From a virus, in IMG/VR virus record IMGVR_UViG_3300031933_000299, positions 1 through 42,323 of that record: a stretch of 42,323 bases of DNA. One strand, written 5' to 3'. Below, in pieces: positions 7,795 through 42,288 of the stretch (position 1 is its first letter; every line of letters begins with the position of its first letter). The notes under the pieces were generated by a model. The model was given only the letters and a program-made list of their open reading frames with translations. It did no database searches and was not told the origin of the DNA. Position numbers and translations under genes: made by a program.

Positions 7795-7925
7795 CGTAAG
7801 CTATGGAGAAATGAAACAATGAAAGAAAATAGAAAACAGGCATTCGTTGCAAGATTGAAAGTAAGACGTGAAATGAAGAAAGGAAAGGATTCCAAGAACC
7901 CATAGATAAGGAAGTGATTAATAAA

Positions 7926-8129
7926 ATGCCAATCGGAGAAATGACAGATTATAGGGGATGTGGTTTCGAAACTGACCACAAAGATGGGAGTAAGTTTTGG
8001 ACTACTTACATCTACAACAGGGTTGCCCCCTACGAGTATGAACTACTAACAATATTACAGTTCCTAGGTGAACCAACACTAGAGAGAATCCAGAAAAATA
8101 TAGACCAAGAGGTTTATGGCGAGTGGTGA
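7926..8129 (+). CDS. Small hypothetical cassette gene
   Basis: Follows the motif copy at 7897-7916; ATG 7926 preferred over GTG 7914. Confidence 0.65.
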   Translation: MPIGEMTDYRGCGFETDHKDGSKFWTTYIYNRVAPYEYELLTILQFLGEPTLERIQKNIDQEVYGEW

Positions 8130-8197
8130 AACTGCCAAATAGAGGAAGTATGAACAATGGATAGATACAAACTACCCATAGAAAAGGAAGTGAAGAG

Positions 8198-8527
8198 ATG
8201 AGTTTCAAACGAGGCCGGGATATTAAGGAAGCAAATCGCAGAATATCAGGTTTAATGAAGAGTATCAAAGAAGTGGAATCTCAAAATATTGAGATCAAAG
8301 AAAGAATTGCAGACAACAACGCCCAGATCTACTCTTTGCAGGACAATGTTTCTGAATTGCGTATTGAAAATGCTGCATATGAGGAATCAATCGAAGATAA
8401 TAATGAATGGATCGAGGAAGCAAAGACTGAGATTAACCAGTTAAAAAATATGTTTGAAGGTGTAGAGATAAGGGCATGTGATAAGCCACGACCTGACAGT
8501 GAGAAGCGGCTTACAGCATTCACATAA
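8198..8527 (+). CDS. Coiled-coil hypothetical cassette gene
   Basis: 109 aa with heptad-like pattern; bounded by motif copies at 8174 and 8526. Confidence 0.75.
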   Translation: MSFKRGRDIKEANRRISGLMKSIKEVESQNIEIKERIADNNAQIYSLQDNVSELRIENAAYEESIEDNNEWIEEAKTEINQLKNMFEGVEIRACDKPRPDSEKRLTAFT

Positions 8528-8582
8528 CCCATAATAAAGGAAGTGGAACGATGGAAGATGAAGATTTTATCATGGAAGAACC
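8528..8582 (+). repeat. 55-bp exact direct repeat of the window end (42269-42323)
   Basis: Base-by-base identity over 55 nt; the preceding bases differ (a8527 vs c42268). Confidence 0.97.
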
Positions 8583-8913
8583 CGAATGGGATAAAATAAA
8601 TGCAGAGATTCATGCAGAAGAGCAAGAGCAAGAGCGCAAAGATAAGGCCATTCTTGAGCAGGTTAAACAACAAGTCTCTCCTACAATTTACCAACAGATT
8701 CAATCAGAAATCGAGGAATCAGGATACACCCACGACTATCGAATTGTCGATGCTCCAAAGGGTGATTTTCAAGACCGTTCAAATGAATATGATGATTATT
8801 TTCTTAATATGTGGGTTGATCAGTACTCCGGGTATTTTGGAGATGATTTTCATGGAACAGTAGATATTGAGCTATCAGAAGGTAAATACCTGCGCTGGTC
8901 ATTTTCAATGTAA
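8551..8913 (+). CDS. Acidic hypothetical cassette gene (its start recurs at 42292)
   Basis: 120 aa flanked by motif copies; the first codons reappear at the window end. Confidence 0.8.
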   Translation: MEDEDFIMEEPEWDKINAEIHAEEQEQERKDKAILEQVKQQVSPTIYQQIQSEIEESGYTHDYRIVDAPKGDFQDRSNEYDDYFLNMWVDQYSGYFGDDFHGTVDIELSEGKYLRWSFSM

Positions 8914-9124
8914 TACCTAAACCCCATAAAGAAGGAAGGATTAACATGTACTTTCGTGGCTTCACCTTTCATTTATTTGTACGTGGAAGCAATGAAACGG
9001 TTAAATCAAGATGAATAAACCACCCAATAAAGGAAAACTTCCAATAGAAAATTGATATTTTCCTTTTTCAGTATTATTATAAGGAAGTTTTTTTCCTATA
9101 CAATGCACAAATCTGAAATTTATA

Positions 9125-9148
9125 TTTCAACTTTCCTTTTTATAGTCA
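9125..9148 (+). promoter_or_regulatory. Putative late promoter TTTCAACTTTCCTTT(T/A)(T/A)ATA upstream of portal
   Basis: Same motif at 11735, 12511 and 19342; TATA-like core; motif start is 42 bp before the ATG here and at 11735. Confidence 0.75.
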
Positions 9149-9166
9149 TCGCCTGAATTTTTCTAC

Positions 9167-10870
9167 ATGTCAATTCTCAACAAACTCTTCTCATCGACTC
9201 CACCACAGCAAAAGAAAACATCACCTGTTGGTGCCTATGTAGGCGATGATCCTTATCAAACCTACATAACAACATTGAAATGGATCAAAGACACGAAAGC
9301 CAAAATGCCAGACGGGTCGGTGTTCGAAGTCACACCGTCCATGAGAGAGGAAGCCTTCGAAACAGATCCTCTACTGAAAGGAACGATCACACCGTTTCTT
9401 AAGAATTCCATTTTAGGAGATTACCAGCTGGCAACAGAAGACAACAAGAAATACGAACCTGCACTCAGGGAGATCAGGCAATATCTTAACGAAATTGGCC
9501 TACTTGATGCATTCAGAGATGACTTCAAGGACCTTACAATTATCCATGGTCATGCATACCGCCGCAAGGATCCTGACAAGGACAGTATAGAATCCCTTGC
9601 ACCTCTCAAAAATGCCACAATCACAACATATCGGGATCCGTGGGATAGCACTACAGTGGCATATCATCAGAAGATATATGTAGATGATTCGTGGACCGAG
9701 AATCCGTCAACATCTGAGTATAATTCCTGGTTCATTCCCAATGGTGGCAGATACATCAAAGGTGAGTATGAAGACCGTGGTGCAAAAGCACAGTTTGATT
9801 TCATCAAAACGAAGTATGGAATCACAGATACTACAAACCTGAGAGTAGATTCATCAGACCGCATTGTTGCCATGCATCGGGTGGATCCGGACGAACCTGC
9901 ACCGATTGATTCTGCAATTCTGGCCATATGGTTAAAGCGTCTACTTCTGACAAACTCACCTAATATCATTTTCAGAGTACTCTCGCCATTCGTTCACATC
10001 AAAAATGGACTTGTCCTTGAGACCACAGGAGCAGATGGTGGAAAGGATCTCATCACCACGGTACCGCAGCAACCACCAGAGGAAATGTCGACAACTGATC
10101 CAGAGAGATATGCAGCCGAGAGTTCAATCTACAATGCATGGGTCACTGCATGCAAGACAGCTGCAAAGAACGTACTTACATCATTGAAAGATGGTGGTAT
10201 CTTCAGTTCAGGTCCTGATACAGAACTCGAGGTCGTTGAATCCGGCAGGTCGGTACCTTCCTCATTCATCAAAACAATGCTGGACCTACTTGATCAGGAA
10301 ATAGGACAGGCATTTGGGTTCCCGGTTGCACTTGTGAAGGCGAATGGTTCTGAATTGGCAACTTCACGTACTATCCTGGAACTTTTCAACACAACCTATG
10401 CAGGTGTGAGAAGAGAATATGAGAAAGTAGCTGACAAACTCATCAGAGAGAGATTTGAGGGCATGTCATGGCAGTATGAGGTACCTACAAAAGATGGCGG
10501 TACCGAAACAGGCACGTTCACATTTGATGATATGGCCTGTCATTTCAAATTGTCTGTTACTGATGTAAGTGACCAGCTGAAGGAAGCCCAGGCCAAGTTG
10601 CAGAAGATGAAGATACTTCAGATAGCCAAGCAGGTCGGAGCTGACAGGTCAGACATTCAGGCGCTCGGAGAAGAATACGGCTTTGGAATGCTCGACCTTG
10701 ACAATTACGACAATGCTCAGGATATCCCACAAACACCCTTCGGGGACGGTGCCGGCATGTCAACCCGGAGTACTGCAGAAGACCTAGAACCCTCTGAAGC
10801 AACTGACCCAGCTGACGAACTATACCAAGTCTACCTCAATGCAAAGGACAAAATCAAGGAGTTAGTATGA
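9167..10870 (+). CDS. Portal protein
   Basis: 567 aa; first gene of the head operon, before the MuF-like gene and after terL on the closed circle. Assigned mainly from size and synteny. Confidence 0.75.
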   Translation: MSILNKLFSSTPPQQKKTSPVGAYVGDDPYQTYITTLKWIKDTKAKMPDGSVFEVTPSMREEAFETDPLLKGTITPFLKNSILGDYQLATEDNKKYEPALREIRQYLNEIGLLDAFRDDFKDLTIIHGHAYRRKDPDKDSIESLAPLKNATITTYRDPWDSTTVAYHQKIYVDDSWTENPSTSEYNSWFIPNGGRYIKGEYEDRGAKAQFDFIKTKYGITDTTNLRVDSSDRIVAMHRVDPDEPAPIDSAILAIWLKRLLLTNSPNIIFRVLSPFVHIKNGLVLETTGADGGKDLITTVPQQPPEEMSTTDPERYAAESSIYNAWVTACKTAAKNVLTSLKDGGIFSSGPDTELEVVESGRSVPSSFIKTMLDLLDQEIGQAFGFPVALVKANGSELATSRTILELFNTTYAGVRREYEKVADKLIRERFEGMSWQYEVPTKDGGTETGTFTFDDMACHFKLSVTDVSDQLKEAQAKLQKMKILQIAKQVGADRSDIQALGEEYGFGMLDLDNYDNAQDIPQTPFGDGAGMSTRSTAEDLEPSEATDPADELYQVYLNAKDKIKELV

Positions 10871-10921
10871 CCGGCCTGATGTGGTTCTGTATTGGTGTTG
10901 TAACCGCTTTCATCTACACAT

Positions 10922-11734
10922 GTGGAGTGCTCACAATTGGCCTCTGAGATTGATCCTGAGACGTTTGACCAGCAGGTAGACCAACTACTCTTAGGTGTCA
11001 CTGCCACTCAGTCAGATGAGCTTGTGAAGTTGATTACAGCCTATTACAAAGCAGGTTCTGATGATGTTCGACCCAATACTCGCCTGACCAATGTTCAGAA
11101 GAATGCTATTAAGAAGCTTTCAGCTGAACACTTCGGCTACATCAGTGAGTTTAATCGCAATGTCGGTGACCAGATCAAGAACAAGGCAAGAGAGCTACTG
11201 AACGAGGGGAAAGGCTATGCTGAAATCTCAGAAGAAATCAGAACCTACGCAGAAGATGTATTTGGCGGGTCAGAGAGGGTTGTTATCGACAATACAGGAA
11301 AGAAGAGAACTGTCTTCAAAGTGGGAAAGGATGGCACAATTCGAAAGACATCAAAGATTATCGAACGTCCGTATGTGACCAACACTCAAGCATATTCTGA
11401 CATGCTTTCGAGGACTGCAACACATACAGCATGGGAGCAGGGCAGAGCAACGGAATACCAACGTATGGGTTTTTCTAAATTCCGGCTGACAGGTCCCGTG
11501 GATGAGAGAGCACGCCCCGATCATGTCGCAGCTTTAGGGTTTGTTTACGAGTATGGAACCGAGCAAGGTAACTATGCACTTTCATTATTAGAAGAACCCA
11601 ATTGCAGACATCGTCAGATTCCTATATTTGGTGACCCGAAGCTCGACACACCGATGTCATTCTTTGAAGAACAAAAAGAGAAAGCTGGCCTGTACTTCGA
11701 TGATGATGCAGGTGAGTGGAAGTTCAGAGAGTGA
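10922..11734 (+). CDS. Minor head protein, SPP1 gp7/Mu gpF-like (start may be TTG 10937)
   Basis: SRTATHTAWEQGR...VDERARPDH...PNCRH pattern; follows portal. Confidence 0.8.
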   Translation: MECSQLASEIDPETFDQQVDQLLLGVTATQSDELVKLITAYYKAGSDDVRPNTRLTNVQKNAIKKLSAEHFGYISEFNRNVGDQIKNKARELLNEGKGYAEISEEIRTYAEDVFGGSERVVIDNTGKKRTVFKVGKDGTIRKTSKIIERPYVTNTQAYSDMLSRTATHTAWEQGRATEYQRMGFSKFRLTGPVDERARPDHVAALGFVYEYGTEQGNYALSLLEEPNCRHRQIPIFGDPKLDTPMSFFEEQKEKAGLYFDDDAGEWKFRE

Positions 11735-11758
11735 TTTCAACTTTCCTTTAAATAGTCA
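11735..11758 (+). promoter_or_regulatory. Putative late promoter upstream of protease
   Basis: tttcaactttcctttaaatagtca; 42 bp to ATG 11777. Confidence 0.75.
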
Positions 11759-11776
11759 CTCTTCAAAGTTCCGAGT

Positions 11777-12988
11777 ATGATTATTTCAACTGTTCTTTCA
11801 GAAAAACCACTCGTCGAAGGTAACAGTGTAACTCTGGCCATCTGCCGAGCAGGCACTAAAGCATATGACGAAAAGGGTAAAGAGTACACCATCACACAAT
11901 CTGCAATCGATTCAAGTGCCGATACATATTCAGGTGGAATCATCACCATCAATCACAAAGTCAAAGAAAATGGCAAGATCACAAAGTCTTGGCAAGACGG
12001 AGAGTTCATCAAAGCCACCGTGGAAGGACTTTCGCAGGCATGTGTGGATGCTATTAATTCAGCTGCTTATCGTGGTGTTTCGCAGGAATCTACTGACGCA
12101 GAGTTCGCTGACAAGAACAGCACCGATATTATCAAACTCAAAGGAACTGGTGTAACTTTTGTGTTCTATCCTGAGAATCCTGCATGTCCTTTGAATAAAG
12201 GATGTGGTGTTCCGATTGCTTCTACCATGGTAACGGCAGATGGGAACTATGAGAGACATTCTTTTGATGTAGCTGTCGAAAACAATGCAGGTACCCTTGT
12301 AAAAGTTAGTGAGATATCGGTGTACTTAGATGGTGATGAAATTGGTGATAAAGATATCCTCAAGAAAAGGATCCTGCAAGAAGCCATGTTCATAGGTGCC
12401 GGTCAGTACAAAATCTTCAATGTTGATACCTCACTCGAAACCGGTGATGTAATTCCTGCAGACAAAGAAGTTGTTCATGATGTGAATATTTCTGTATCAA
12501 TGTTAAAGAGTTTCAACTTTCCTTTAAATACCCATAATGAAAAACTTGAATCAAATACTCCTGGAGGGGTAAACATAACTGAAGCCGACCAAAGCGCAAA
12601 ACTTGAATCAACTGTCTCTGATCTCAAAACAGAGAACAAGGATCTCAAGTCCACTATCACTGAACTCCGTCAGGAGCTCAAAGAGAAGGACGGAAAGATT
12701 GAGAGCACGGTGAATGCAGCCGTGAAAGCTGCTCTGGAATCACACGACAAAGCACTCAAGGAACAGACCGAACGCGACTCTATTCTGACCGAACTCAAGT
12801 CAACCGTTTCTGATGAGACACTCGCTGGGTTCAAAGATGTACCAACATTTGCACTGAAAAGTACACTTGCAGCAATCAAGGAGAGCGCAGGGAAGCGCGT
12901 GGGAGCAAACAGCGGGACCGGTGTACAGAGCACCACAGATGAGGAGGACTATGCCTCACTGGGTGTAACATCAATCGAGGTGGAATAA
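11777..12988 (+). CDS. Prohead protease with C-terminal coiled-coil scaffold domain
   Basis: N-terminal INH and GVSQES candidate catalytic His/Ser; C-terminal heptad-rich region; lies between MuF and cement/MCP. Confidence 0.75.
   Translation: MIISTVLSEKPLVEGNSVTLAICRAGTKAYDEKGKEYTITQSAIDSSADTYSGGIITINHKVKENGKITKSWQDGEFIKATVEGLSQACVDAINSAAYRGVSQESTDAEFADKNSTDIIKLKGTGVTFVFYPENPACPLNKGCGVPIASTMVTADGNYERHSFDVAVENNAGTLVKVSEISVYLDGDEIGDKDILKKRILQEAMFIGAGQYKIFNVDTSLETGDVIPADKEVVHDVNISVSMLKSFNFPLNTHNEKLESNTPGGVNITEADQSAKLESTVSDLKTENKDLKSTITELRQELKEKDGKIESTVNAAVKAALESHDKALKEQTERDSILTELKSTVSDETLAGFKDVPTFALKSTLAAIKESAGKRVGANSGTGVQSTTDEEDYASLGVTSIEVE
12511..12530 (+). promoter_or_regulatory. Putative late promoter inside the protease ORF
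   Basis: 20/20 match (tttcaactttcctttaaata) to the copies at 11735 and 19342, followed by GGAGGGG at 12563-12569. Confidence 0.65.
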
Positions 12989-13425
12989 TGGCAGTTGGAG
13001 ATCTCAAGGGTGAGGAAGCGATTTGTATAAAACTTACACTCGGAGCAACGGCTACTACAGGCCAGGTCATCGCACTCCAGGCAGACGGCAAATGGGACCC
13101 TGTTACAACCGGGATGCCTGGTAAGTTCGCTGTAGCACTGGAGGGTGGAGATGATACAGAAGAAGTGATGGCATGTGTATATGGTCGCGTGGAAGTGCAG
13201 GCAACCGCAGCCACAATTCCAAAAGGTGCTCATGTCATTGCAGGCTCAACCGGGAAGATAGTGAAAGCTACAGCGATGACTGCACTCGATGCACCTGCAT
13301 CATATGTCGAGGCAACAGTACAGACCGAGCTTGACAAAATACAGGATCCACGTCTTCTCGTAGGTACTGTGATGGAAGCATTTGGTTCTGGTGAAACTGG
13401 AACACTCTTTGTAGGAATGGTGTAA
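12988..13425 (+). CDS. Capsid cement/decoration protein (DUF2190-like)
   Basis: 145 aa, G/A/V/T-rich beta protein directly before the MCP. Confidence 0.7.
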   Translation: MAVGDLKGEEAICIKLTLGATATTGQVIALQADGKWDPVTTGMPGKFAVALEGGDDTEEVMACVYGRVEVQATAATIPKGAHVIAGSTGKIVKATAMTALDAPASYVEATVQTELDKIQDPRLLVGTVMEAFGSGETGTLFVGMV

Positions 13426-13427
13426 TC

Positions 13428-14261
13428 ATGGCAGGAACTACAACCCCAACAACTATTGATGGCTCATTAGATGCCAAGAACATTGCAATGCGTGTCCTTA
13501 AGGGCGCAATCGAACTGACCGATCTTGCACCTCTCTGTATGTCCGTACAGGTGCCTGAACTCGTGGCAACCGTGCCAGTGTATTCCGTGCCAGCTGGAAA
13601 CGAAGACCTTGAACCGATGGAAGAGTCTGACATTGAAGGCTCTGAGTTCACCAATGTGGACTTTGACCTCAAGAAAGACCGTGTCAAGGTTGCAGTGACC
13701 GACGAGGCCAGATACAAGAGCAGGGCCGGAGATCCTCTCACACTTCAGATAGGCGGTGCATCAGACAGACTTGCACAGCTCCTGAACAAGAAGATCGTCA
13801 CAGCTGCAAACACCACACCACAGACTTCCGCGGGTGCCGATTGGTCCGGAGCCAACAATCCAATTGCAGACATCGCAACTGCAGTAGCTGCACTCAGACC
13901 ATATAAGGCAGATTACTGTCTCATGGGTTCAACTGCATTTGCCAACTATACCAGCCACTTCGACATTGCCACAACCACCGAGCTTGGTAATGCAATGGCG
14001 GTGGTTCCCGGATACAACATTCCAATAATGGTATCCACGGAGATTGATGATGTCATCGATGAGGCAGCTGCAGTTGTGGTTGCATCAAAGGCCCCCGGCA
14101 TGGTCATTGGTAACGGGCCTGTGAAGGTCAGACGTAAGGACCTCATGAGTGGTGCCGAGGTGTACCAGATCGATGTGTGGAGAGAAGTAGTTTCCAACAT
14201 CCACGATACTGGAAGCTCCACCAACGCAGCAGTGTACAAACTCACCGGACTGGACGGATAA
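13428..14261 (+). CDS. Major capsid protein (HK97 fold)
   Basis: 277 aa at the canonical position after protease and cement; followed by a terminator-like hairpin. Confidence 0.8.
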   Translation: MAGTTTPTTIDGSLDAKNIAMRVLKGAIELTDLAPLCMSVQVPELVATVPVYSVPAGNEDLEPMEESDIEGSEFTNVDFDLKKDRVKVAVTDEARYKSRAGDPLTLQIGGASDRLAQLLNKKIVTAANTTPQTSAGADWSGANNPIADIATAVAALRPYKADYCLMGSTAFANYTSHFDIATTTELGNAMAVVPGYNIPIMVSTEIDDVIDEAAAVVVASKAPGMVIGNGPVKVRRKDLMSGAEVYQIDVWREVVSNIHDTGSSTNAAVYKLTGLDG

Positions 14262-14279
14262 TCCCGTCCTGCACTTTTT
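14252..14279 (+). terminator. Hairpin plus T-run after the MCP
   Basis: GGACGG-ataatc-CCGTCC, then tgcacTTTTT. Confidence 0.5.
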
Positions 14280-14291
14280 CCGGAGGCTATC

Positions 14292-15438: not shown

Positions 15439-15445
15439 CCGTGCT

Positions 15446-19337: not shown

Positions 19338-19341
19338 TGAT

Positions 19342-19361
19342 TTTCAACTTTCCTTTAAATA
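19342..19361 (+). promoter_or_regulatory. Putative late promoter for the tail operon
   Basis: tttcaactttcctttaaata in the intergenic gap before 19424. Confidence 0.7.
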
Positions 19362-19423
19362 CTCAAAAACAAAACTCCACTCTGTAGAGAACCTACATTC
19401 TAATCACAAGTGGAGAACCCACG

Positions 19424-29147: not shown

Positions 29148-30062
29148 ATGAAATTGGATAAGAATGCGATAATTCCAGCACTGGAAAAAAACAAGGCAAT
29201 GAAAGCCAACGATGATGTATATTCACTCATTGTCGATGGTGTCAAATGTGGAATTGATTTCAAGAAAAACGAGTTCTTCTGGATGGACGATCTCACCAGA
29301 ATGTCTGATGATAGTAATTGTGAAGAGCTCAAGAAGTTCAAGGAAATCTGCCTTGGTGCAATGTTTTCTAAGAATAAGAGTAGTGGTGAACCTTCCAAGT
29401 CTGCCCCATCTGATGCAACCGACCAAAGCGCAAGTGTGGAGGAGACTGATGAAGAAGGATACACCAATACAGAATATGACAATCCACCACATGAATCTTT
29501 TGTACCTGCACCAGTCACACAGAGACAAGTTGCAGCCGCACATAGCGTGGACTTCACACCCGACCAGATCGATACGATAAGGAACACTGTTGCCAAAGGT
29601 GCAACTGATGATGAGCTGGCAATGTTCATGCACCTGGCAAATACATATGGCCTTGATCCGTTCCTGAAGGAGATCTTCTATTCCAGCCAGATGAAAACCA
29701 TCATCACATCGAGAGATGGGTACCTGAAGGTTGCACAGAGAGATCCTGAATTCGATGGAATTCAGTCCATGGCAGTATGTGAGAATGATGACTTCTCAAT
29801 TGACATGGTGAACAATGTTGTCAATCACTCGTTTGGAAAGGGTGACCGGGGGTCTGTAATCGGTGCGTGGGCTGTCTGTTACAGGAAAGGACGCAGGCCA
29901 GTTATTGCATATGCTGACTATAATGAGTACAACAAGAACAACCCGATCTGGAAGACTTACAAGAGTGCAATGTGCTGTAAGGTTGCAGAGGTTTTTGCCT
30001 TGAAGAGACAGTTTGGCATTAGTGGTCTGGTGACTCAGGAAGAGATGGGGGTGGAAGCATGA
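29148..30062 (+). CDS. recT: Bet/RecT single-strand annealing protein with N-terminal extension
   Basis: ATDDELAMFMHLANTYGLDPFLKEI...TSRDGYLKVA...GAWAVCYRK...AMCCKVAEVFALKRQF...EEM. Confidence 0.88.
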   Translation: MKLDKNAIIPALEKNKAMKANDDVYSLIVDGVKCGIDFKKNEFFWMDDLTRMSDDSNCEELKKFKEICLGAMFSKNKSSGEPSKSAPSDATDQSASVEETDEEGYTNTEYDNPPHESFVPAPVTQRQVAAAHSVDFTPDQIDTIRNTVAKGATDDELAMFMHLANTYGLDPFLKEIFYSSQMKTIITSRDGYLKVAQRDPEFDGIQSMAVCENDDFSIDMVNNVVNHSFGKGDRGSVIGAWAVCYRKGRRPVIAYADYNEYNKNNPIWKTYKSAMCCKVAEVFALKRQFGISGLVTQEEMGVEA

Positions 30063-32419: not shown

Positions 32420-32483
32420 CTTCCATTTCTATTTTTTACAGGCACGATTGCAGATGTGTTCAGATACTGGAAGTGCTTGAAGT

Positions 32484-34863: not shown

Positions 34864-35202
34864 TAGAAATACACAACACCTTCGTACAGACATGTGACAG
34901 CTGCCCGTCGAACTGGGATTTGAAAGCTATCCATGTCTCACCTATCGGGGACAGATCAGAGACTATTCTTGTCCTATGTGGTGGGTGTAGGTATGAACTG
35001 AAAAAGAAGCTGGATAAGGAGGTGGTCTGATGACTACAATTCAACGCCACGACCCGATCACCGTCGGCAAAAACGGAAAGGTCAGGAAAGCAAAGGAAGG
35101 AGACCCGATTATCGGATATGCTTGGATACACGAACGCAGATCAGGCGTTTTGGTGGCAATTCCTGGTACAGCATGGCTCATAAAAATGGAGGTGGAAAGG
35201 TA

Positions 35203-35913: not shown

Positions 35914-36033
35914 GGTGTAAATATCTTGTTTCAAAACGATGTTCCTATGCCTCGCCTGCATCATATGTGTGTATGAACGGCGGTGGATCTTATTGTGGAA
36001 AATGGAGAGAATTTGAAAAGAATGGTGTAAACG

Positions 36034-36246
36034 ATGAGCACAAGTTACGTAGATAAATATCAGATATGTGAGCTAACTCTCAATGAGTGGGAATATGAGT
36101 ATGTCATGGATGCATTATATTATTATCAGTATCATGAAAAGCTTAAGGATTCCAGGCAAAAACAATTCATTGAAGAGATTGATCTTGATAAAGATGTTAG
36201 CAAAAAGGTATTTCAGGAAAAGCTCAAGGAATGCAAACATTCCTGA
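36034..36246 (+). CDS. Small hypothetical protein
   Basis: Stop abuts the motif copy at 36246. Confidence 0.65.
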   Translation: MSTSYVDKYQICELTLNEWEYEYVMDALYYYQYHEKLKDSRQKQFIEEIDLDKDVSKKVFQEKLKECKHS

Positions 36247-36272
36247 CCCCCATAATAAAGGAAGTGATAAAG

Positions 36273-36467
36273 ATGTCATTATTTTTGGAAACAATAAACG
36301 AAGTAGCAGAAGAAATGAAAGAGCAATGTGATGATCTTGAAAAGATTGTCAATCTCTGTACTGAATATCTCAAGAAATATGGACTTGATCAAGACCAGCT
36401 TAAGTTAGACCTTGACTTAATCCTTGAAGGAAAAAGGGATGAGTTAGACGAATTTGTGACAACCTGA
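36273..36467 (+). CDS. Small hypothetical cassette gene
   Basis: Between two motif copies; ATG 36273 lies 6 nt after GGAAGTG. Confidence 0.7.
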   Translation: MSLFLETINEVAEEMKEQCDDLEKIVNLCTEYLKKYGLDQDQLKLDLDLILEGKRDELDEFVTT

Positions 36468-36495
36468 ACCCCATAATAAAGGAAGGTGAAGAACG

Positions 36496-36699
36496 ATGAT
36501 AGATGTCAAAAAAGAATATGTTGAAGATCCTGAAATGCTTAAGTCATGGAACTATAATGAGCCAGTCCTGGCAATATCAACACCATATTCACATTCAGTT
36601 ATTCCGATGAGTCATATTTGCTATCGTGAAATTAAGCGGATTGTCAACGATGCAAAGAGTAAGGTTCAGCGCATAGAAGAGGCTGACAAAAACCCATAA
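36496..36699 (+). CDS. Small hypothetical cassette gene
   Basis: Between two motif copies; the stop codon is supplied by the motif (AAC CCA TAA). Confidence 0.7.
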   Translation: MIDVKKEYVEDPEMLKSWNYNEPVLAISTPYSHSVIPMSHICYREIKRIVNDAKSKVQRIEEADKNP

Positions 36700-36859
36700 T
36701 AGGGGAAGTGTTGAGTAACCCACTGAAACTCCCTTTTTTACTTTTATACAATTTCATTTTTTTTTATGTAACATACTGGTTGCAATACATTTATAATGCA
36801 TATCAATACGGCTACTTTTATATATTATGTGATACATACGTAATGTTTAGGTGTATATA

Positions 36860-37015
36860 ATGGATTACAAATTTCCATCAAGTATAAGGATGGCAGGCAA
36901 TTCTCTTGTTGTTGGTGTTCCTGCGCCGGTGGTGCGGGAGCTTGGTCTGGTGCCGAAAAAGGTCGGTATCGATGTATCTGATGACAGGAAGAGACTGATA
37001 ATAGAGTTGGAGTGA
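36860..37015 (+). CDS. AbrB/MazE/SpoVT-family regulator (51 aa)
   Basis: MDYKFPSSIRMAGNSLVVGVPAPVVRELGL...; GNSLxVxxP is the AbrB signature. Below the ORF-track cutoff. Confidence 0.8.
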   Translation: MDYKFPSSIRMAGNSLVVGVPAPVVRELGLVPKKVGIDVSDDRKRLIIELE

Positions 37016-37021
37016 TACGCG

Positions 37022-38983
37022 GTGGTTGTCGAAGGCGATATCCTCAGTATCAATGATGTGAAGCACTGCAAACTCGCTTTCTGTCCGGAAGGAGACAGCA
37101 TCAGATACACAATTCACTCTCCAATCTTTTACAAGGAAAAACAGCCCGCTACAGACACGTTTCCAAATGGTATCTTGGATAGTAGACTCGTGAACATCAT
37201 TAAATCACGTGTGCTTGACTATTTAATAGACGATAATCGTGATGACATGGACAACAGTGCCCTGCGGGAAGATGTTGCTATTGGGTTGTCTGTTCACAAA
37301 ATATGCGAAGAGGTATGTGAACAGGATTGGTATTACTCGAATAGTCAACGAAAGGGGAAGTGGTTCGGGTACACTGTTCCACCCGGCTATGACATCAATG
37401 CTGGGTGTATCCGTTTGGAAAAGTACTCGGGCGACGAGCCATACTACATCACTTTCTGTAGGACACCCTGTATACCAATTGCCACCGGTCAGAACATCGA
37501 CACCGGTGAATATTGGGTTCAGCTCAGGTTCATGAATATCTACAACAGAGTGCATGATGAGTGGGTATCTCAACAAGATGCACTGAGTAGACGAGGTATC
37601 ATGAAACTTGCGGACCGCGGGATCAATCTAATCGAGAAGGACAGCTCAACGATGAATGCATATCTCAGTACATGTCTACAAGTGAACGGAATGGACATGC
37701 CGCGAAGATTCGTGACGGAGAAAAACGGATGGAAATGTGATAATACCATATTTGCATTCGGAAAACGTGGATTTTCAAATGGTGAGATATTGAACATAGT
37801 TCCACTTAGAAAAGAGGCATACAATGGACTCCGGGTATGTGGTGATATCAATACATGGATTAATGCAGTCAGACCAATCATACACTTGCCACTTGTGCGG
37901 TTGAAGATGTATGCGGTTTTTGCATCTCCTCTGCTGAGATTATTGAACGTACAATCATTCATTCTTGATCATAATGGTGAGTCGTCAATTGGTAAAACGT
38001 TCACAAACGATCTGGCAATGTCGATGATTGGTGATGCTGATACCCTGAGGTTCAATGGTGATACAACCAAGACAGCTGCAGAGATCCTCGCAGAAATGTA
38101 CACAGATCTACCACTCTACCTGGATGAGACGGGTACTCAACAATCTGATGATGTTTTGAAGGCACTCATATACATGCTTGCTAATGAACAGGGGAGGATG
38201 AGAGGCCACAAGGACGGTGGACTGCGTGAAACGGGCAAATGGAAGACCGTGGCACTCACTACAGGGGAAAAGCCACTAACCTCCCACAAGTCGTTCTCTG
38301 GCCAGCAGGTGAGAGTCATTGAGGTCCGGGGTGGACTGTCACAGGGTGTTATTGATGATGTTAAAGTTGCTGCAGATGTTCGAAAGGAGAACTATGGACA
38401 TTTTGCAGAGCTATATTTTGCTAAACTTGCCGAATATGCTCCAAGACTTCGCGACATGTACGACATGACAAGGTCTAGGTACACGACCAAGGACAACGTC
38501 AAAACAAACCGGGTTGCAAGTTCTTTCGCAGCTATGATGGTTGCGGGTATGCTACTTGAGGATATCTTCAGCGACGTGGGTATTGATCCAGCTGAGCCAC
38601 ATACTATTGTTGACAGGTTCTTTGCCAAAACTATAGACAACAGTGTTACAGAGAACTATTCTACAAGAGCACTGCAAACATTGATCGACTGGGTGCAAAC
38701 CAAGAACGCGTGTTTCTATGATGCTGGAAATCCCGAGAACCAGAAAGGAAACGAATTCTATGGATGGATCGAGAACGGATATCTTGATATTATAATCACA
38801 GAAGCAAGAAAGACACTTGAAAAGAACGGATATGATCCCACCCGATCAATCAACGACTGGAAAGACGACGGTATAACAAAAACATCGAAGGGGAGAAACG
38901 ACTACCTTGCCAAACACAATGGCAAAAATCACAGGGTAATTAGATTGTTGTTAGAAGAGGTGAATAATGTACTGCATAGATAA
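37022..38983 (+). CDS. DUF927-containing replicative helicase (Cch-like AAA+)
   Basis: GWK in the DUF927-like region; Walker A GESSIGKT; Walker B LYLDE; LANEQGRMR; TTGEKPL; QQVRVIEV. Confidence 0.85.
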   Translation: MVVEGDILSINDVKHCKLAFCPEGDSIRYTIHSPIFYKEKQPATDTFPNGILDSRLVNIIKSRVLDYLIDDNRDDMDNSALREDVAIGLSVHKICEEVCEQDWYYSNSQRKGKWFGYTVPPGYDINAGCIRLEKYSGDEPYYITFCRTPCIPIATGQNIDTGEYWVQLRFMNIYNRVHDEWVSQQDALSRRGIMKLADRGINLIEKDSSTMNAYLSTCLQVNGMDMPRRFVTEKNGWKCDNTIFAFGKRGFSNGEILNIVPLRKEAYNGLRVCGDINTWINAVRPIIHLPLVRLKMYAVFASPLLRLLNVQSFILDHNGESSIGKTFTNDLAMSMIGDADTLRFNGDTTKTAAEILAEMYTDLPLYLDETGTQQSDDVLKALIYMLANEQGRMRGHKDGGLRETGKWKTVALTTGEKPLTSHKSFSGQQVRVIEVRGGLSQGVIDDVKVAADVRKENYGHFAELYFAKLAEYAPRLRDMYDMTRSRYTTKDNVKTNRVASSFAAMMVAGMLLEDIFSDVGIDPAEPHTIVDRFFAKTIDNSVTENYSTRALQTLIDWVQTKNACFYDAGNPENQKGNEFYGWIENGYLDIIITEARKTLEKNGYDPTRSINDWKDDGITKTSKGRNDYLAKHNGKNHRVIRLLLEEVNNVLHR

Positions 38984-39002
38984 ACAATGTAATAATCATA
39001 TA

Positions 39003-39267
39003 GTAACCTACGGTAACCATATAGTAACCTATAATAATAATAATAAAAACAATAACAGTAGACATATAGTAACCAAGGTAACCAAGGTAACCAATATATT
39101 ACATAATGTGTGTAAAATCCACATACTACTAGTAACAATTTATAAAGTATTAAATTCCCATATATACACACAAAAACTTGGTTACAGTGGTTACTTTGGT
39201 TACCTATGCCTTTTGATATCGTTTTTTGTAAAATTTGCTTGGTTACCTGTAAAAATAGGGTGGTTAC
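39003..39267. repeat. Putative replication origin with convergent GTAACC/GGTTAC iterons
   Basis: GTAACC at 39003, 39013, 39024, 39069, 39078, 39087; GGTTAC at 39180, 39189, 39198, 39241, 39262; AT-rich spacers; directly after the helicase. Confidence 0.75.
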
Positions 39268-39268
39268 T

Positions 39269-39541
39269 ATGAGCAAGTTTCTTGACGACTACTTGACAAG
39301 GTTCCCAGATTTGCCAAAACCGAAGTTGGAAATTAGGACAGACGGGAAGGAAATAAAAAACGTAAGAGGCGAACTTGCATGTTTAGATCAGGCAATTATC
39401 AATCATGTGAGGAAAAAGTATCCTTCAATGTTTGTTCCTGATCTTAACGAGTTTGTTCTTGAATTCTGCAATGAACATCCTTACAGAGGATCAATTGTTC
39501 AGAGTCGTGCTGAAAAGCTAAGGTCTAGAGGGTGGAAATGA
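39269..39541 (+). CDS. Hypothetical protein
   Basis: ATG 39269; 90 aa. Confidence 0.55.
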   Translation: MSKFLDDYLTRFPDLPKPKLEIRTDGKEIKNVRGELACLDQAIINHVRKKYPSMFVPDLNEFVLEFCNEHPYRGSIVQSRAEKLRSRGWK

Positions 39542-39714
39542 AACCATATTTCAAACCCTTCCACACCCGGTGTCCTTCCTGCCGAAAACACATCTACATC
39601 ATGTCAGAAGATCAGAAGACAGTGTTCTGTGCAAATTGTGGTGATAAGTGGAACATCACGTTCACGATTCGCAAGAAAGTGAAGTTATCGAAGATAACAT
39701 CCGGAGGAAAATAA
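39538..39714 (+). CDS. Zn-ribbon protein
   Basis: CPSC...CANC. Confidence 0.65.
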   Translation: MKPYFKPFHTRCPSCRKHIYIMSEDQKTVFCANCGDKWNITFTIRKKVKLSKITSGGK

Positions 39715-40169
39715 TGTCCACACAAAAACTAACAAAATGGAATTGGACCCATCAAAGGATGAAAGCAGCTAAACTGATGGCAACCACCAGCATGACACAT
39801 GAAGAAATTTCAAAAGAATGTGGGGTCAGAAGAGAGACTGTCACCGTTTGGAACCAACATCCCGATTTTAAAGAGAAGGTTACAGAGTTGATTCTCCTCG
39901 ATGAGAGAGCAACAAAGGCAGGCATTCTCAAAAGAGCAATGGATTCGCTTGAAAAGAAGACAGAAAAAGTCGACGATGACAAGACCACCGAATTGGATTA
40001 TCTCAAATTCATCTCAGAGTTCCAGGGCCACACAAAGCAAGGTGGTGATCTCATTATCAATAATGCTACTGCAGTTGTGATGTCACCAGAGGTTTCCGAA
40101 AAGGCGAACGAGTTGTCAAGGATTTTGACATTGAATGCGATTGAGCAGGAGGAAGCTGATGAGCAGTGA
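39714..40169 (+). CDS. terS: Terminase small subunit
   Basis: N-terminal HTH (THEEISKECGVRRETVTVW); directly upstream of terL. Confidence 0.75.
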   Translation: MSTQKLTKWNWTHQRMKAAKLMATTSMTHEEISKECGVRRETVTVWNQHPDFKEKVTELILLDERATKAGILKRAMDSLEKKTEKVDDDKTTELDYLKFISEFQGHTKQGGDLIINNATAVVMSPEVSEKANELSRILTLNAIEQEEADEQ

Positions 40170-41574
40170 AATACCTCCCGAAATGTATACAGTCACACCG
40201 GCACTCTTTGCACAGTACTGCAGCCGGTTCAAGTGGTTTGCTTATGAATATCTTCTTGTGCTGTCAGATGCTCTTATCAAAGTTGCAACCGGGGAAACAA
40301 AGCACCTCATGATATTCATGCCACCAAGACATGGGAAATCCGAGCTTGCATCAAAGTATTTCCCTGCCTGGTTCCTTGGACACAACCCTGACAAAAGAGT
40401 CATGTTGACTTCATATGAAGCAGACTTTGCAGCTTCTTGGGGATACAAGGCCAGAAACATCCTTGATGAAAATGGTCACCTGTTTGGCCTGAAAGTATCC
40501 GGTGCATCTGCCGCAAGAAACAGGTGGGACATTGAAGGACACAACGGTGGAATGGTCACTGCTGGTGTAGGTGGCCCAATCACAGGAAAGGGAGCTCACC
40601 TTCTAATCATTGATGATCCTGTCAAGAACTCCGAGGATGCCAATTCAAAGACCATGCGAGACAAGGCAGCCGAATGGTACAAGTCAACTGCATATACCAG
40701 ACTTGAACCAGGTGGAGCTGTTATCATCATTCAAACAAGGTGGCATGAAGATGATCTGTCAGGCAGACTACTTGAAGAAGAACCTGACAAATGGACCGTT
40801 ATCAATCTACCTGCGATTGCAGAGGAAGAAGATCCTTTGGGCAGGATGCCTGGTGAAGCACTATCACCTCATCGTTACACCGTTGAAGATCTCACAGAGA
40901 TTAAGAACACACTTGGTCCACATTGGTTCAGTGCTCTTTATCAGCAGCATCCACAGCCACTTGAAGGAGCTATCTTCAAACAACCACATTTCAAATACTG
41001 GAAACCTATCTCAGACGGATATGATCTCGGTGGGAAGAGAGTTCCTGCTTCAACATGCAGGGTATTTCAGACATGTGATCCAGCGGCTTCTACCAAATCC
41101 ACTGCTGATTATTTTGTACTTGGAACATGGGCACAGACAAAAGATAACGACTTGATTCTGCTTGATCTGTTGAGGAACAGGCTCGAAGGACCTGACCAGG
41201 TCAACCTCTTCAAATCTCAATATCAAAAGTACAGTCCAGCATTCCAGGCAGTTGAATCAAACGGTGCTGGTAAGGTTCTCTATCAGATGCTTGTGAGGGA
41301 AGGACTGCCAGTGAGGGAACTCAAAGCTGACAAAGACAAGGTCACAAGGGCTTTACCTGCAGCTGCACGAATGGAAGCCGGTACAATATATTTTCCCGCA
41401 AAAGCTCCATGGTTGGGTGATTTTGAGAACGAGCTTTTATCGTTCCCGTCTGGTGTGCATGATGACCAGGTTGATGTTTTGAGTTATGCAGTTCAGCTTG
41501 TGATTCAGAAGAGAGAGTCAAAGGTTCCAAAATTCAATACAGGTTTTGGAATTTCAGGTGGGATGAGAATATGA
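40159..41574 (+). CDS. terL: Terminase large subunit
   Basis: Walker A MPPRHGKS; Walker B LLIIDDP; IQTRWHEDDL; nuclease domain CDPA...DY; HDDQVD. Confidence 0.96.
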   Translation: MSSEIPPEMYTVTPALFAQYCSRFKWFAYEYLLVLSDALIKVATGETKHLMIFMPPRHGKSELASKYFPAWFLGHNPDKRVMLTSYEADFAASWGYKARNILDENGHLFGLKVSGASAARNRWDIEGHNGGMVTAGVGGPITGKGAHLLIIDDPVKNSEDANSKTMRDKAAEWYKSTAYTRLEPGGAVIIIQTRWHEDDLSGRLLEEEPDKWTVINLPAIAEEEDPLGRMPGEALSPHRYTVEDLTEIKNTLGPHWFSALYQQHPQPLEGAIFKQPHFKYWKPISDGYDLGGKRVPASTCRVFQTCDPAASTKSTADYFVLGTWAQTKDNDLILLDLLRNRLEGPDQVNLFKSQYQKYSPAFQAVESNGAGKVLYQMLVREGLPVRELKADKDKVTRALPAAARMEAGTIYFPAKAPWLGDFENELLSFPSGVHDDQVDVLSYAVQLVIQKRESKVPKFNTGFGISGGMRI

Positions 41575-41597
41575 ATACGTTTTTTGGGTTCCGCTCT

Positions 41598-42288
41598 CCC
41601 ATAGTATAGGAAGTTTTGAACATGAAAGTTTTGATAGCTTGTGAGTTTAGCGGAATTGTCAGAACTGCATTTGAGGAAGCCGGACACGATGCTATGTCAT
41701 GCGATCTTTTGCCTTCGGAGATTCCAGGTAATCACTATCAAGGTGATGTTAGAGAGGTTCTTAATAATGGTTGGGATATGATGGTTTGTCATCCTCCGTG
41801 TACTCATCTGGCTGTGTCTGGTGCTAGATGGTTCAAAGGCAAGCAGGAAGAACAAAAGGAAGCTCTGGAGTTTGTCAGGATTCTAATGTCTGCTCCTATT
41901 GAAAAGATAGCTCTGGAGAATCCTGTGAGCATAATTAGTTCACATATCAGGAAACCAGATCAATATATTCAACCGTGGCAATTCGGACACCCAGAAACCA
42001 AAAAAACAGGATTGTGGTTAAAGGGTTTGCCTTGTCTGAAACCTACTAAAATAGTAGAAGGCAGAGAAAACAGAGTGCATAGAATGCCACCATCAGAGGA
42101 TAGATGGAAGGAACGAAGCCGGACTTATACGGGTATTGCTAAAGCTATGGCTGAACAGTGGACTACCTAAACCACCCAATAAAGGAAAACAGAATGAAGA
42201 TAACCCATAAAGAAGGAAAACATGAACAGAAAACTACGTGAGTGGATAGATCAGAAGTATTCAGAAACCCCATAATAAAGGAAGTGGA
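41598..42288 (+). repeat. Intergenic repeat CCCATA-N5-GGAA, cluster 3 (41598; variant 42169; 42202; 42266)
   Basis: cccatagtataggaagt; taaaccacccaataaaggaaaac (23/23 identical to 9016-9038); aacccataaagaaggaaaac; aaccccataataaaggaagtg. Confidence 0.88.
41622..42170 (+). CDS. C5-cytosine DNA methyltransferase-like protein
   Basis: MKVLIACEFSG (motif I variant), HPPC (motif IV), LENP (motif VI). Confidence 0.85.
   Translation: MKVLIACEFSGIVRTAFEEAGHDAMSCDLLPSEIPGNHYQGDVREVLNNGWDMMVCHPPCTHLAVSGARWFKGKQEEQKEALEFVRILMSAPIEKIALENPVSIISSHIRKPDQYIQPWQFGHPETKKTGLWLKGLPCLKPTKIVEGRENRVHRMPPSEDRWKERSRTYTGIAKAMAEQWTT

Follow-up and report, generated by a model that had tools for sequence, protein, structure and literature searches.

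Short conserved motifs at gene boundaries have been described in several tailed viruses. The promoter-early stem-loops (PeSLs) of T4-type phages are short conserved regulatory motifs that flank small non-essential ORFan genes in hyperplastic regions. Where closely related phages differ by an insertion, deletion or replacement, the change is bounded by a PeSL, and recombination of one copy with its neighbour has been proposed as the cause (Arbiol et al., 2010, PMC2839356, PMC4122927). The start-associated sequences (SAS/ESAS) of cluster K mycobacteriophages are asymmetric 13-16 nt motifs with a Shine-Dalgarno (SD) core, found in a single orientation a few nt before starts, mostly ATG (Pope et al., 2011, PMC3203893). 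They are confined to non-structural genes, the host genome is virtually free of them, the upstream stop is sometimes within the motif and their function is still unproven. In the haloarchaeal myovirus HGTV-1, an archaeal tailed virus, one conserved motif precedes many ORFs of one genome arm; according to the account in PMC3950731, its authors compared it to PeSLs and suggested a shuffling role (Sencilo et al., 2013).

The motif CCCATA-N5-GGAAG resembles the known phage boundary motifs PeSL and SAS in the features given above, and is likewise carried by an archaeal tailed virus. It was analysed in a 42,323 nt stretch of viral DNA (the window) and in related genomes.

Motif copies in the window

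Exact matches to CCCATA-N5-GGAAG were found at nine positions on the + strand of the window (7899, 8175, 8528, 8923, 36249, 36470, 36693, 41598 and 42269) and at none on the - strand. Letter shuffles of the window gave a mean of 0.03 exact matches, with a maximum of 1. Tolerating one mismatch added one copy at 42204, ending GGAAA. Two degenerate copies, identical in sequence, were located at 9020-9038 and 42172-42190. All copies are on the + strand at gene junctions and are grouped in three small-gene arrays. The sequence-only reading had listed twelve such copies, the two degenerate ones as variants; all twelve sites are real, with positions given 0-3 nt too far left, an AA/AC prefix included. 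The observation is confirmed for the window. An ATG was found 22-27 nt past the first C at 8 copies, including that of the methyltransferase (MTase) at 41598. The upstream stop is inside the motif at 7903-7905, 36697-36699 and 42273-42275, no more than 13 nt before it at four other copies and 26-48 nt before it at 8175 and 41598. The motif precedes variable accessory genes, as had been proposed, and is absent from core structural and replication gene junctions, which carry GGAGG or GAGGTG-type sites, or leaderless promoters.

Array 1 (7819-9014, +) contains five small ORFs of 28, 67, 109, 120 and 22 aa, lies 3' of the DUF7845/Rep-Arvir gene (6328-7794) and has a G+C content below that of the virus body. 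The TAG (7903-7905) of copy 1 (7899-7914, spacer GATAA) ends the 28-aa ORF (7819-7905), and the copy and its 67-aa downstream gene (ATG 7926) recur in the related array L273 at 98.5% identity behind a different upstream cassette. Copy 2 (8175-8190, spacer GAAAA) leads a 109-aa coiled-coil gene (ATG 8198). Copy 3 (8528-8543, spacer ATAAA) abuts the upstream stop (8525-8527), leads the 120-aa 'MEDEDF' gene (ATG 8551) and is the left edge of a 55-nt repeat shared with 42269-42323. Copy 4 (8923-8938, spacer AAGAA), followed by a 22-aa ORF (ATG 8946), is kept in G001, a complete relative of the tailed virus, and in all terL-portal alleles. The degenerate terminal copy (9020-9038) has no downstream gene; between it and the leaderless portal promoter at 9124 are an inverted repeat (GGAAAA/TTTTCC) and a T run, in that order.

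Array 2 (36034-36740, +, G+C 0.36) closes the early/recombination operon with ORFs of 70, 64 and 67 aa. Copy 5 (36249-36264, spacer ATAAA) has the stop of the 70-aa gene 3 nt upstream and leads the 64-aa gene (ATG 36273). Copy 6 (36470-36485, spacer ATAAA, with GT after the motif) leads the 67-aa gene (ATG 36496), which is ended by the TAA (36697-36699) of copy 7 (36693-36708, spacer ATAGG). Copy 7 is a terminal 'empty' copy with no credible downstream gene; a T run comes next, and then the AT-rich region that holds the promoter of an AbrB-like gene at 36851.

Array 3 (41598-42323, +) consists of the MTase gene, an empty slot, a 17-aa ORF and the MEDEDF start, and lies 3' of terL (40135-41574) and, with the circle closed, 5' of the portal gene (9167). 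Copy 8 (41598-41613, spacer GTATA), with the terL stop 24 nt before it, leads the 182-aa DNA MTase gene (ATG 41622) and is the left boundary of an insertion (41615-42268) that is missing from G001. The degenerate copy at 42172-42190 is the first half of a ∼55-nt unit (42166-42220) recurring at array ends in Methanolobus elements. Copy 9 (42204-42219, spacer AAGAA, GGAAA form) leads the 17-aa ORF (ATG 42222), a mini-cassette also present in L273 with a different neighbour upstream. Copy 10 (42269-42284, spacer ATAAA) ends the 17-aa ORF with its TAA (42273-42275) and opens a second copy of the MEDEDF gene 5' end, where the contig ends.

The motif is common to both elements of the window, an integrase + DUF7845 Rep element (1-8527) and a tailed-virus circle (8528-42268), which join at a 55-nt exact repeat starting at the motif. 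It had been placed in both elements and at their junction; this holds, but the junction most probably reflects a cassette common to both, at which the assembly graph branches, and not a cointegrate. The only site-specific recombinase in the window is the tyrosine integrase of the small element (4060-4965, - strand), which adjoins no array. The tailed virus encodes a RecT-family single-strand annealing protein (29148-30062, +; PF03837, E = 1.9e-30).

Anatomy and distribution of the motif

Copies from the window and its relatives were pooled to give 79 distinct copies. The spacer varies in sequence and is fixed at 5 nt, as first proposed (86 pooled matches, against 2 or fewer when the spacer was set to any other length between 0 and 11 nt). 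A start codon was present 18-29 nt downstream in 60/79 copies (76%), with a peak at +23/+24, and the in-motif TAA/TAG ended the upstream ORF in 37/79 (47%). About 24% were empty end-of-array copies with no start after them. The host 16S rRNA 3' end is CCUCCU, with which GGAAGUGA pairs at 7/8 positions. The half-sites are ∼10.5 nt apart, one helical turn. No stable RNA fold was found at the motif (z-scores -0.8 to +0.95), nor an attC-like fold, a hairpin or extended inverted repeat (a suggested TTCC arm occurs in just 21/79 copies) or a matching Rfam family. The original description of a stop-to-RBS module is correct; the translational signal, which had been set up as a competing alternative, is part of the same element.

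A scan with a position weight matrix had been suggested; with the exact 16-mer, the motif was found in 19/151 Methanosarcinaceae genomes (46 matches against 0 control matches). Methanolobus sp. ZRKC3 carries 22 copies, against 3 control matches. Copies occur in scattered clusters, mostly 1-25 kb from an integrase or Rep gene. The motif is not host-wide but restricted to mobile elements, both viruses and integrated ones, of Methanolobus-type methanogens. A 50%-identical MEDEDF homologue in another genome lies in an array with a different standard junction, and the junction therefore belongs to the exchange community and not to the gene.

Cassette turnover and its explanation

Turnover of cassettes at the motif, by gain, loss and swap of whole genes, is real among related genomes. 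The terL-to-MEDEDF part of the terL-to-portal gap has three alleles differing by motif-bounded insertions, each found in 3-5 independent assemblies. Five different sequences were found upstream of the MEDEDF gene, and they all diverge at the gene's own motif copy (8528). The L273 array has at least 15 motif copies and includes, with different neighbours, the window block 7899-8527, the 17-aa cassette, the L186 cassette and one L238 cassette. Alignment ends fell within 25 nt of the motif in 34/245 cases against 2.9 expected, and 15 of the 47 ends at gene starts were at motif-led starts, which number only 21/382 (∼6x enrichment over other gene starts). Motif-positioned mosaic boundaries were also found within one closed isolate chromosome and thus are not assembly artefacts. 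The breakpoint comparison among relatives that the sequence-only reading had called for thus places gene gain, loss and replacement at the motif, and its shared accessory pool is borne out by motif-bounded cassettes, 98-100% identical, in different arrays and unrelated element types.

In flank pairs with the same downstream and different upstream sequence, spacer and SD were unchanged in 13/14; with the same upstream and different downstream sequence, the spacer differed in 10/13. The spacer and GGAAG stay with the gene that follows them, which places the junctions at CCCATA or just to its left. Only for the MTase cassette can the left boundary be resolved to the base, and there it is 4 nt to the left of CCCATA; other cassettes break at CCCATA, and one (L273/L186) breaks right of the spacer. 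The difference between the MTase cassette and those that break at CCCATA agrees better with short-homology recombination than with cleavage at a fixed point.

The reading preferred here, with moderate confidence, is that the motif is a junction module combining a stop with a ribosome site, and that recombination uses its copies as short homology. The anatomy, the confinement to mobile elements and the motif-bounded cassette polymorphism are observed, whereas the role in translation and the mechanism of recombination are inferred. The motif would be the standard oriented junction module of a mobile-element gene pool in Methanolobus and related Methanosarcinaceae, found where small accessory genes without their own promoters follow one another at operon ends, in the gap that is transcribed between them. 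Its TAA/TAG would often terminate the upstream ORF, and GGAAG(TG), one mismatch from full pairing to the host 16S 3' end, would be an SD site that puts the ATG 23-24 nt past the first C, in A-rich RNA predicted to be unstructured. As every cassette has the same 16-30 nt junction, copies in co-resident elements would act as portable short homology. Recombination between two copies would insert, delete or swap cassettes, with an empty copy remaining at the array end. Participants would include a rolling-circle Rep element, the tailed virus and others, and recombination may proceed by RecT-type annealing, for which the RecT protein of the tailed virus is a candidate catalyst, or by host recombination.

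Several observations weigh against plain homology. The invariant hexamer, variable spacer, invariant GGAA and helical-turn half-sites look like recognition by a specific factor, and plain homology would not maintain so sharp a motif profile. GGAAG is retained although GGAGG pairs better. Junctions are far commoner on the CCCATA side than on the GGAAG side, despite identical tracts of similar length, and 16-30 nt is marginal homology for RecT-type annealing. Against the junction module, there is nothing to translate after about one copy in four, and a lone empty copy is kept in L126/L129.

A dedicated integron-like cassette system is possible but unlikely. Here the bipartite site would be bound by a recombinase or nicking enzyme, and the strand exchange would take place inside the invariant CCCATA; the small elements offer a tyrosine recombinase and a rolling-circle Rep as candidates, and an enzyme of the host is another. 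Cassettes would leave as circles with a single site and could enter at any copy, typically at the empty one that serves as a dock where an operon ends. The invariant hexamer, the fixed spacing, the 13/14 pairs in which spacer and SD go with the downstream gene and the junctions at or next to CCCATA are as expected for such a system. So are the arrays, in which n genes come with n copies, the terminal copy is empty and the first gene has no 5' copy, and the lone empty copy at the terL operon end in L126/L129, a relative with only 79% terL identity. Arrays are directly 3' of Rep in 6/7 DUF7845 elements, G065 has an array with a different junction directly 3' of an RCR Rep and a 219-aa tyrosine recombinase, and ZRKC3 clusters are mostly near integrases. 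However, no recombinase was consistently next to the motif arrays; the tailed virus and G001 carry arrays and lack an integrase near them, as does L273. The absent hairpin or inverted repeat, the scarce TTCC arm and the offset MTase and L273/L186 breaks also count against an enzyme. In the DUF7845 virus that has been characterised, a hairpin 3' of rep is the origin used by Rep (PMC13107129), and the motif resembles neither this nor the different conserved small hairpin that overlaps the rep stop in the DUF7845 elements here. Of the 'cassette-exchange system' first proposed, motif-bounded exchange is supported and a dedicated system is not shown, and that interpretation overall is partly supported.

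It is also improbable that the motif is purely an expression signal like SAS or stoperators, bound on mRNA or DNA by a host or element protein or RNA factor that controls the accessory genes as a set through translation or transcription. Cassette boundaries would then coincide with it only because selection favours intergenic positions for the mosaic joints of phages. The gene-wise orientation, SD core, fixed ATG distance, half-site spacing and limitation to accessory genes, with host core genes free of the motif, are consistent with a signal, and a related element elsewhere has its own lineage-specific junction, as the SAS consensus varies by subcluster (PMC3203893). The copies with no following start, the ∼6x enrichment of alignment ends at motif-led over other gene starts and the near-identical cassettes in unrelated element types argue against it, and no candidate binding protein was identified.

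An antisense archaeal promoter, or an endonucleolytic RNA-processing site making single-gene messages, is very improbable: on the - strand the motif gives CTTCC and then a TATA-like box, which resembles the repeated leaderless late promoter of the window (9124, 11734, 12510, 19341), with whose reverse complement this strand shares ∼8-10 nt, and the motif is in every intercistronic gap of the arrays, but no - strand ORF starts at the expected distance, the + strand genes are backed by homology (MTase E = 8e-73), only a + strand role explains the SD-to-ATG spacing, a TATA box read on the + strand would start RNA 7-11 nt inside the gene, and neither an Rfam match nor structure was found.

Comparison with known systems

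The preferred junction module shares features with several plasmid and phage systems. The pdif modules of Acinetobacter plasmids are likewise bounded by short recombination sites and common to different plasmids, but these are 28-bp XerC/D sites in alternating orientation, which was not seen for the present motif. The stoperators of cluster A mycobacteriophages, which are 13-14 bp long, are also asymmetric, all point the same way and are found where genes meet; they differ in being spread genome-wide and repressor-specific, neither of which was seen here. Integrons (IntI, attI, attC) also form one-way arrays of promoterless single-gene cassettes from a shared pool, with a repeat after every cassette, the last included, and a junction that maps to a short invariant core. 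The present arrays, in contrast, have no adjacent IntI, attI or Pc, the site has no attC-type folded structure of 57-141 nt, and the conserved part remains 5' of the gene, for which it also provides the ribosome site.

The HGTV-1 motif contains a TATA-like box and inverted repeat and is thus promoter-type; it is reported from a single virus, with no cassette sharing across elements shown. SAS are unrelated in sequence to the present motif, are limited to one phage cluster and have no reported role in cassette exchange, whereas the present motif bounds cassettes with documented turnover and has no start after a quarter of its copies. PeSLs combine a sigma-70 promoter with a terminator stem-loop, and their mini-circles have been shown physically. 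The present motif is neither promoter nor terminator but an intra-operon stop/RBS junction, its cassettes are known from sequence, and it is common to unrelated element types in an archaeon.

Motif copies and their anatomy

The pattern CCCATA-N5-GGAAG was matched nine times in the window, on the + strand only; shuffled sequences gave 0.03 matches. An extra copy at 42204 ends in GGAAA in place of GGAAG, and two degenerate copies at 9020-9038 and 42172-42190 are identical to each other. The copies fall into three clusters (7899-9038, 36249-36708 and 41598-42284) of small same-strand ORFs, each lower in G+C than the rest of the window. Each gene of these arrays has a copy 3' of it, the last gene included, and the first gene of each array has no copy 5' of it. 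Outside the arrays, GGAGG or GAGGTG-type sites are used instead, except at the portal gene and gene 11777 (see below). The sequence-only reading had described the motif accurately, including its absence from core gene junctions; its copies are real and its coordinates were off by 0-3 nt because an AA or AC prefix had been counted in.

Motif anatomy was analyzed in 79 distinct copies. The spacing is fixed at 5 nt, as first reported, with 86 matches compared to at most 2 at any other spacing, and the spacer is purine- and A-rich with ATAAA as its commonest form. An ATG, counted only if it opened an ORF of at least 15 codons, was located at +18 to +29 in 52/79 copies (+23 or +24 in 31 of these), and 8 further copies are followed by GTG or TTG starts instead. 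The 16S rRNA of the host has the 3' end CCUCCU, against which GGAAGUGA forms a Shine-Dalgarno site with one mismatch inside it. The upstream ORF is ended in 37/79 copies by a TAA or TAG that the end of CCCATA forms together with the base after it, and in 13 further copies by a stop 3-5 nt 5' of the motif. No start follows 19 copies (about 24%); these close their arrays, and the DNA beyond them is AT-rich and non-coding. T runs are not enriched after these empty copies (4/19 against 9/60). By this anatomy the motif is a compact stop-plus-ribosome-site junction within operons, and the proposal of a stop-to-RBS module was borne out by the in-motif stops and the ATG peak.

No stable RNA structure was predicted for 10 copies folded with their flanks, the energies being no better than those of shuffles (z −0.8 to +0.95), and an Rfam search of the window gave no family matches. 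A TTCC arm 5 nt left of the motif was common in the first 44 copies and is present in 21/79. Were it general, this arm would make the site symmetric; a symmetric recombinase core site (arm, 6-bp overlap, arm) seemed to fit the first 44 copies and failed in the 79. An RNA hairpin masking the Shine-Dalgarno site through TTCC/GGAA pairing was also discarded, given the scarcity of TTCC and folding like that of shuffles. Further pairing of the CCCATA half with 16S rRNA gave at best a single 8-mer, about chance level.

Two elements in the window

The window is the entire IMG/VR record. G001 is a relative of 31.9 kb, complete and bearing terminal repeats. It matches window 8525-42268 colinearly once that stretch is circularised, and in G001 terL is followed directly by the 120-aa MEDEDF gene (ATG at 8551 in the window) and then the portal gene. 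The circle 8525-42268 is a tailed virus, with genes for terminase, portal, Mu-F-like protein, RecT (29148-30062), methylases and a DUF927 primase. Window 1-8527 belongs to another, small element, which encodes a tyrosine integrase and, at 6328-7794, a DUF7845 protein. DUF7845 was shown recently to be the rolling-circle replication initiator Rep-Arvir of betapleolipovirus SNJ2, in which the origin is a hairpin downstream of rep (PMC13107129). The two elements join at a 55-nt exact repeat (8528-8582 = 42269-42323) whose first bases are a motif copy, and the MEDEDF gene lies in tailed-virus context in all 8 other contigs carrying it. Because an exact repeat at the motif resembles a de Bruijn graph branch, the join is read as an assembly path through a cassette common to both elements, not as a cointegrate. 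The claim that the motif occurs in both elements stands; the junction between them is most likely a product of assembly.

IMG/VR relatives of the DUF7845 Rep and of the DUF927 primase were sought and none were found. The window has a single integrase gene (4060-4965, − strand), at a distance of 3 kb from array 1, and no integrase is close to arrays 2 (36034-36740) and 3 (41598-42323), or to the motif copies of G001 and the related contig L273.

A palindrome of AGC, four bases and GCT with arms of up to 5 bp (7792-7803) lies at or just after the DUF7845 Rep stop codon and is kept in loci L276, L277, L160 and L142 despite their unlike flanks. Its possible roles are those of a terminator or of a piece of the rolling-circle origin. 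The motif itself was rejected as the origin of this Rep, being without a hairpin, unlike the described origin. A promoter-like repeat of ~25 nt, TTTCAACTTTCC followed by a TATA box, is present at 9124-9148, 11734-11758, 12510-12534 and 19341-19365, at the end of locus L142 and at about 6160 in L175, and is shared with proviruses of Methanolobus ZRKC3. The portal gene (9167) and gene 11777 are both without a Shine-Dalgarno site and have their ATG 22-23 nt past the end of the TATA box, which suggests leaderless late messages. The motif was tried as a + strand promoter for leaderless mRNAs and rejected: its geometry is wrong by about 10 nt, so that the RNA start would fall inside the gene, whereas the promoters at 9124 and 11734 fit.

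Distribution and turnover of cassettes

A 19-base version of the motif was scanned over one genome per prokaryotic species. Matches were found mainly in Methanolobus, with others in Methanosarcina, Methanomethylovorans and one further Methanosarcinaceae genome; single matches in other taxa were at chance level, and an earlier collection scan with a 14-base pattern gave single chance matches only. Among Methanosarcinaceae genomes, the exact 16-mer was found 46 times in 19/151, with 0 control matches. The closed 2.75-Mb chromosome of Methanolobus sp. ZRKC3 holds 22 copies of the relaxed pattern, compared to 3 for a reversed control, in about 14 scattered clusters. Most of these lie within 1-25 kb of one of 10 integrase genes or 2 DUF7845 genes, and several contain genes related to the tail genes, Rep, integrase or terL of the window. 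From this proximity and the 19/151 genomes, the motif marks the group's mobile elements and is not a general host signal. A host-wide ribosome-binding or 5'-UTR signal was rejected, with only these scattered copies in the chromosome and 132/151 family genomes without an exact copy.

The gap between terL and the MEDEDF gene exists as three alleles, each in several independent assemblies. It contains one motif copy in G001 and 4 other contigs; about 650 bp between two copies in the window and 2 other contigs, with a DNA methyltransferase (phrog_757, E = 8e-73), an empty slot and a 17-aa ORF; and about 300 bp between two copies in L186 and 2 metagenome contigs, with a small membrane protein. The MEDEDF gene has 5 different upstream neighbours, and in each case identity starts 0-4 nt from CCCATA. 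The longest array found is that of L273, a contig assembled at k = 31, in which the 3.3 kb following a giant SNF2/methylase gene contain at least 15 motif copies. It holds window block 7899-8527 at 98.5% identity beside different neighbours, and also the 17-aa cassette, the L186 membrane-protein cassette and a cassette of locus L238, each again with different neighbours. The cassette proteins of 67 and 64 aa were looked up by exact match and nothing was found, probably owing to longer called starts. The giant gene (L273 1-2808) encodes more than 1050 aa and combines SNF2 helicase and N6-methylase domains.

Among related loci, which were chosen for carrying the motif, 34/245 alignment ends fell within 25 nt of a motif copy, against 2.9 at random (maximum 10 in 2000 trials). 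With crude gene calls, 15/47 alignment ends at called gene starts lay at motif-led starts, whereas 21/382 of all starts are motif-led. The expectation that gain and loss breakpoints fall at the motif was upheld by these ends and by the motif-bounded gap alleles. Mosaic joints at the motif were also found between elements within the closed ZRKC3 chromosome. The comparative data show that cassettes are exchanged at the motif, as one-way arrays of promoterless genes from a shared pool with the repeat as boundary. Not all mosaicism is caused by it: the replication-module swap at 36016-39549 relative to G001 is not motif-bounded, so the motif accounts for cassette-scale changes only. This module comprises small genes, an AbrB-like gene and the DUF927 primase-helicase in the window, and a MerR-like gene and a 1011-aa DnaG/D5-type primase in G001.

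The position of the joint was obtained from pairs of loci. Where the same downstream gene follows unrelated upstream DNA, the spacer and GGAAG are identical in 13/14 pairs; where the same upstream DNA precedes different downstream genes, the spacer differs in 10/13 pairs, and the 3 pairs with an unchanged spacer all carry the commonest one. The joint is therefore at or just left of CCCATA, and the spacer and ribosome site move with the downstream gene. Two exceptions were noted: the methyltransferase cassette carries 4 nt from left of CCCATA, and the L186/L273 cassette breaks right of the spacer.

A MEDEDF homologue, 50% identical, is found in another Methanosarcinaceae genome (G065), in an array 3' of a rolling-circle Rep (PF23343) and a 219-aa tyrosine recombinase. 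The junctions of this array are standardised on a different sequence with canonical GGAGG, so that the type of junction goes with the array or exchange community and not with the gene. This second family of standard junctions was seen in a small-gene array at about 8170-9700 of L281 (G065:C1:250000-268000); the stop-codon-initial 11-mer TAACCGAATCC occurs 9 times in the G065 genome, with 0 control matches, and a CGACAATAGGAGG-type site precedes starts in the L281 array. Distant relatives of the tailed virus have no terL-portal array, or have ordinary junctions and then a single empty copy at the operon end (L126/L129).

A unit of ~55 nt is present at or near array ends in many elements (window 42166-42220; L140 6283; L142 5215 and 6280; L148 4976; L175 6110 and 6525; L169 about 5300; L275 about 4790). 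It contains a degenerate copy (GCCAAR-TAAAGGAAA type) and, ~20 nt on, a canonical copy with GGAAA at its end, after which there is mostly no gene. Arrays may commonly have this unit as their terminal or docking module. At three ZRKC3 loci (L142 5248-5374, L170 6375-6501, L175 7199-7300) a motif copy lies a few bases 5' of a terL-like end comprising only the last ~38 residues of terminase (a 33-aa ORF in L175). Apparently a remnant of terminase is carried here in the manner of a 'cassette', in which case the joint on its left would not be a motif-to-motif exchange.

Interpretation and comparison with known systems

Small ORFan accessory genes are the seat of most host-manipulation and counter-defence functions of viruses and plasmids. 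To our knowledge, little is understood of how they pass from one element to an unrelated one, above all in archaea. In the methanogen elements studied here, genes of this kind carry a common 16-nt tag, whether they lie in a rolling-circle Rep element, in a tailed virus or in other integrated elements, and in natural variants whole genes have come and gone at this tag. The tag is a sequence handle for the accessory gene pool of Methanosarcinaceae mobile elements, and may serve as a stop-plus-ribosome-site junction for building operons in Methanosarcina genetics.

We give about an even chance to a dual-purpose junction with homology-driven exchange. Most economically, motif copies would act as short homology and recombination would take place between them, with RecT supplied by the tailed virus and small elements replicating via single-stranded intermediates. 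Recombination between copies is the mechanism proposed for the PeSL boundary motifs of T4-type phages (PMC2839356).

A dedicated recombination system is rather improbable. A site-specific mechanism or binding factor would be consistent with four features: conservation is very sharply profiled, GGAAG is kept although GGAGG would be the better-pairing sequence, joints fall preferentially on the CCCATA side, and empty copies are conserved. In a specific and similarly doubtful form, the motif would be the recombination site of a hitherto undescribed cassette-capture system in archaeal mobile elements, cut in CCCATA, possibly by a rolling-circle Rep or a small tyrosine recombinase of Rep-bearing elements. 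If so, single-gene cassettes with their own ribosome site would move between viruses, plasmids and integrated elements that have a Methanolobus host in common, and different lineages would have junction sequences of their own, that of G065 being one example. It is equally unlikely that the motif is purely an expression signal with which boundaries coincide by selection. An antisense promoter or RNA-processing signal is very improbable.

Whether boundary motifs of the PeSL type, or the start-associated SAS type, act in expression, in recombination or in both can be asked of this motif as a natural test case; the cultured Methanolobus sp. ZRKC3, with a closed genome and more than 20 copies, makes this question accessible to experiment.

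The open-access text searched gave no description of this motif, nor of cassette arrays in elements from Methanolobus or Methanosarcina. The Rep-Arvir/DUF7845 nick site is marked by a conserved hairpin with an upstream inverted repeat just after rep, whereas the motif is not a hairpin and the conserved element at the end of rep here is the different small palindrome at 7792-7803. An integron needs an IntI-type tyrosine integrase beside the array, attI and the promoter Pc, a set not found here, and its attC sites are imperfect inverted repeats forming single-strand hairpins, whereas TTCC/GGAA complementarity is confined to a minority of the motif copies. The likeness to integrons is in the one-way promoterless array from a shared pool, with boundaries at a repeat. 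SAS of cluster K mycobacteriophages is, like the motif, an asymmetric, conserved Shine-Dalgarno-core sequence in one orientation, a few nt before the start codons of non-structural genes only. However, about a quarter of the copies here are without a start, the consensus is unrelated in sequence and the carriers are Methanosarcinaceae elements, not mycobacteriophages. SAS has the same anatomy and no known shuffling role, its function being still untested in 2025 (PMC3203893, PMC12699233). PeSL is a promoter plus terminator stem-loop unit, whereas the motif is without a stem-loop and its arrays are internal to operons. The motif shares with PeSL the motif-bounded indels and replacements among close relatives, seen here between the window and G001, L186 and L273. 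In PeSL, exchange between neighbouring copies also yields mini-circles. Together with PeSL and SAS, the PeSL-like motif of halovirus HGTV-1 (PMC3950731) is the nearest thing described so far.
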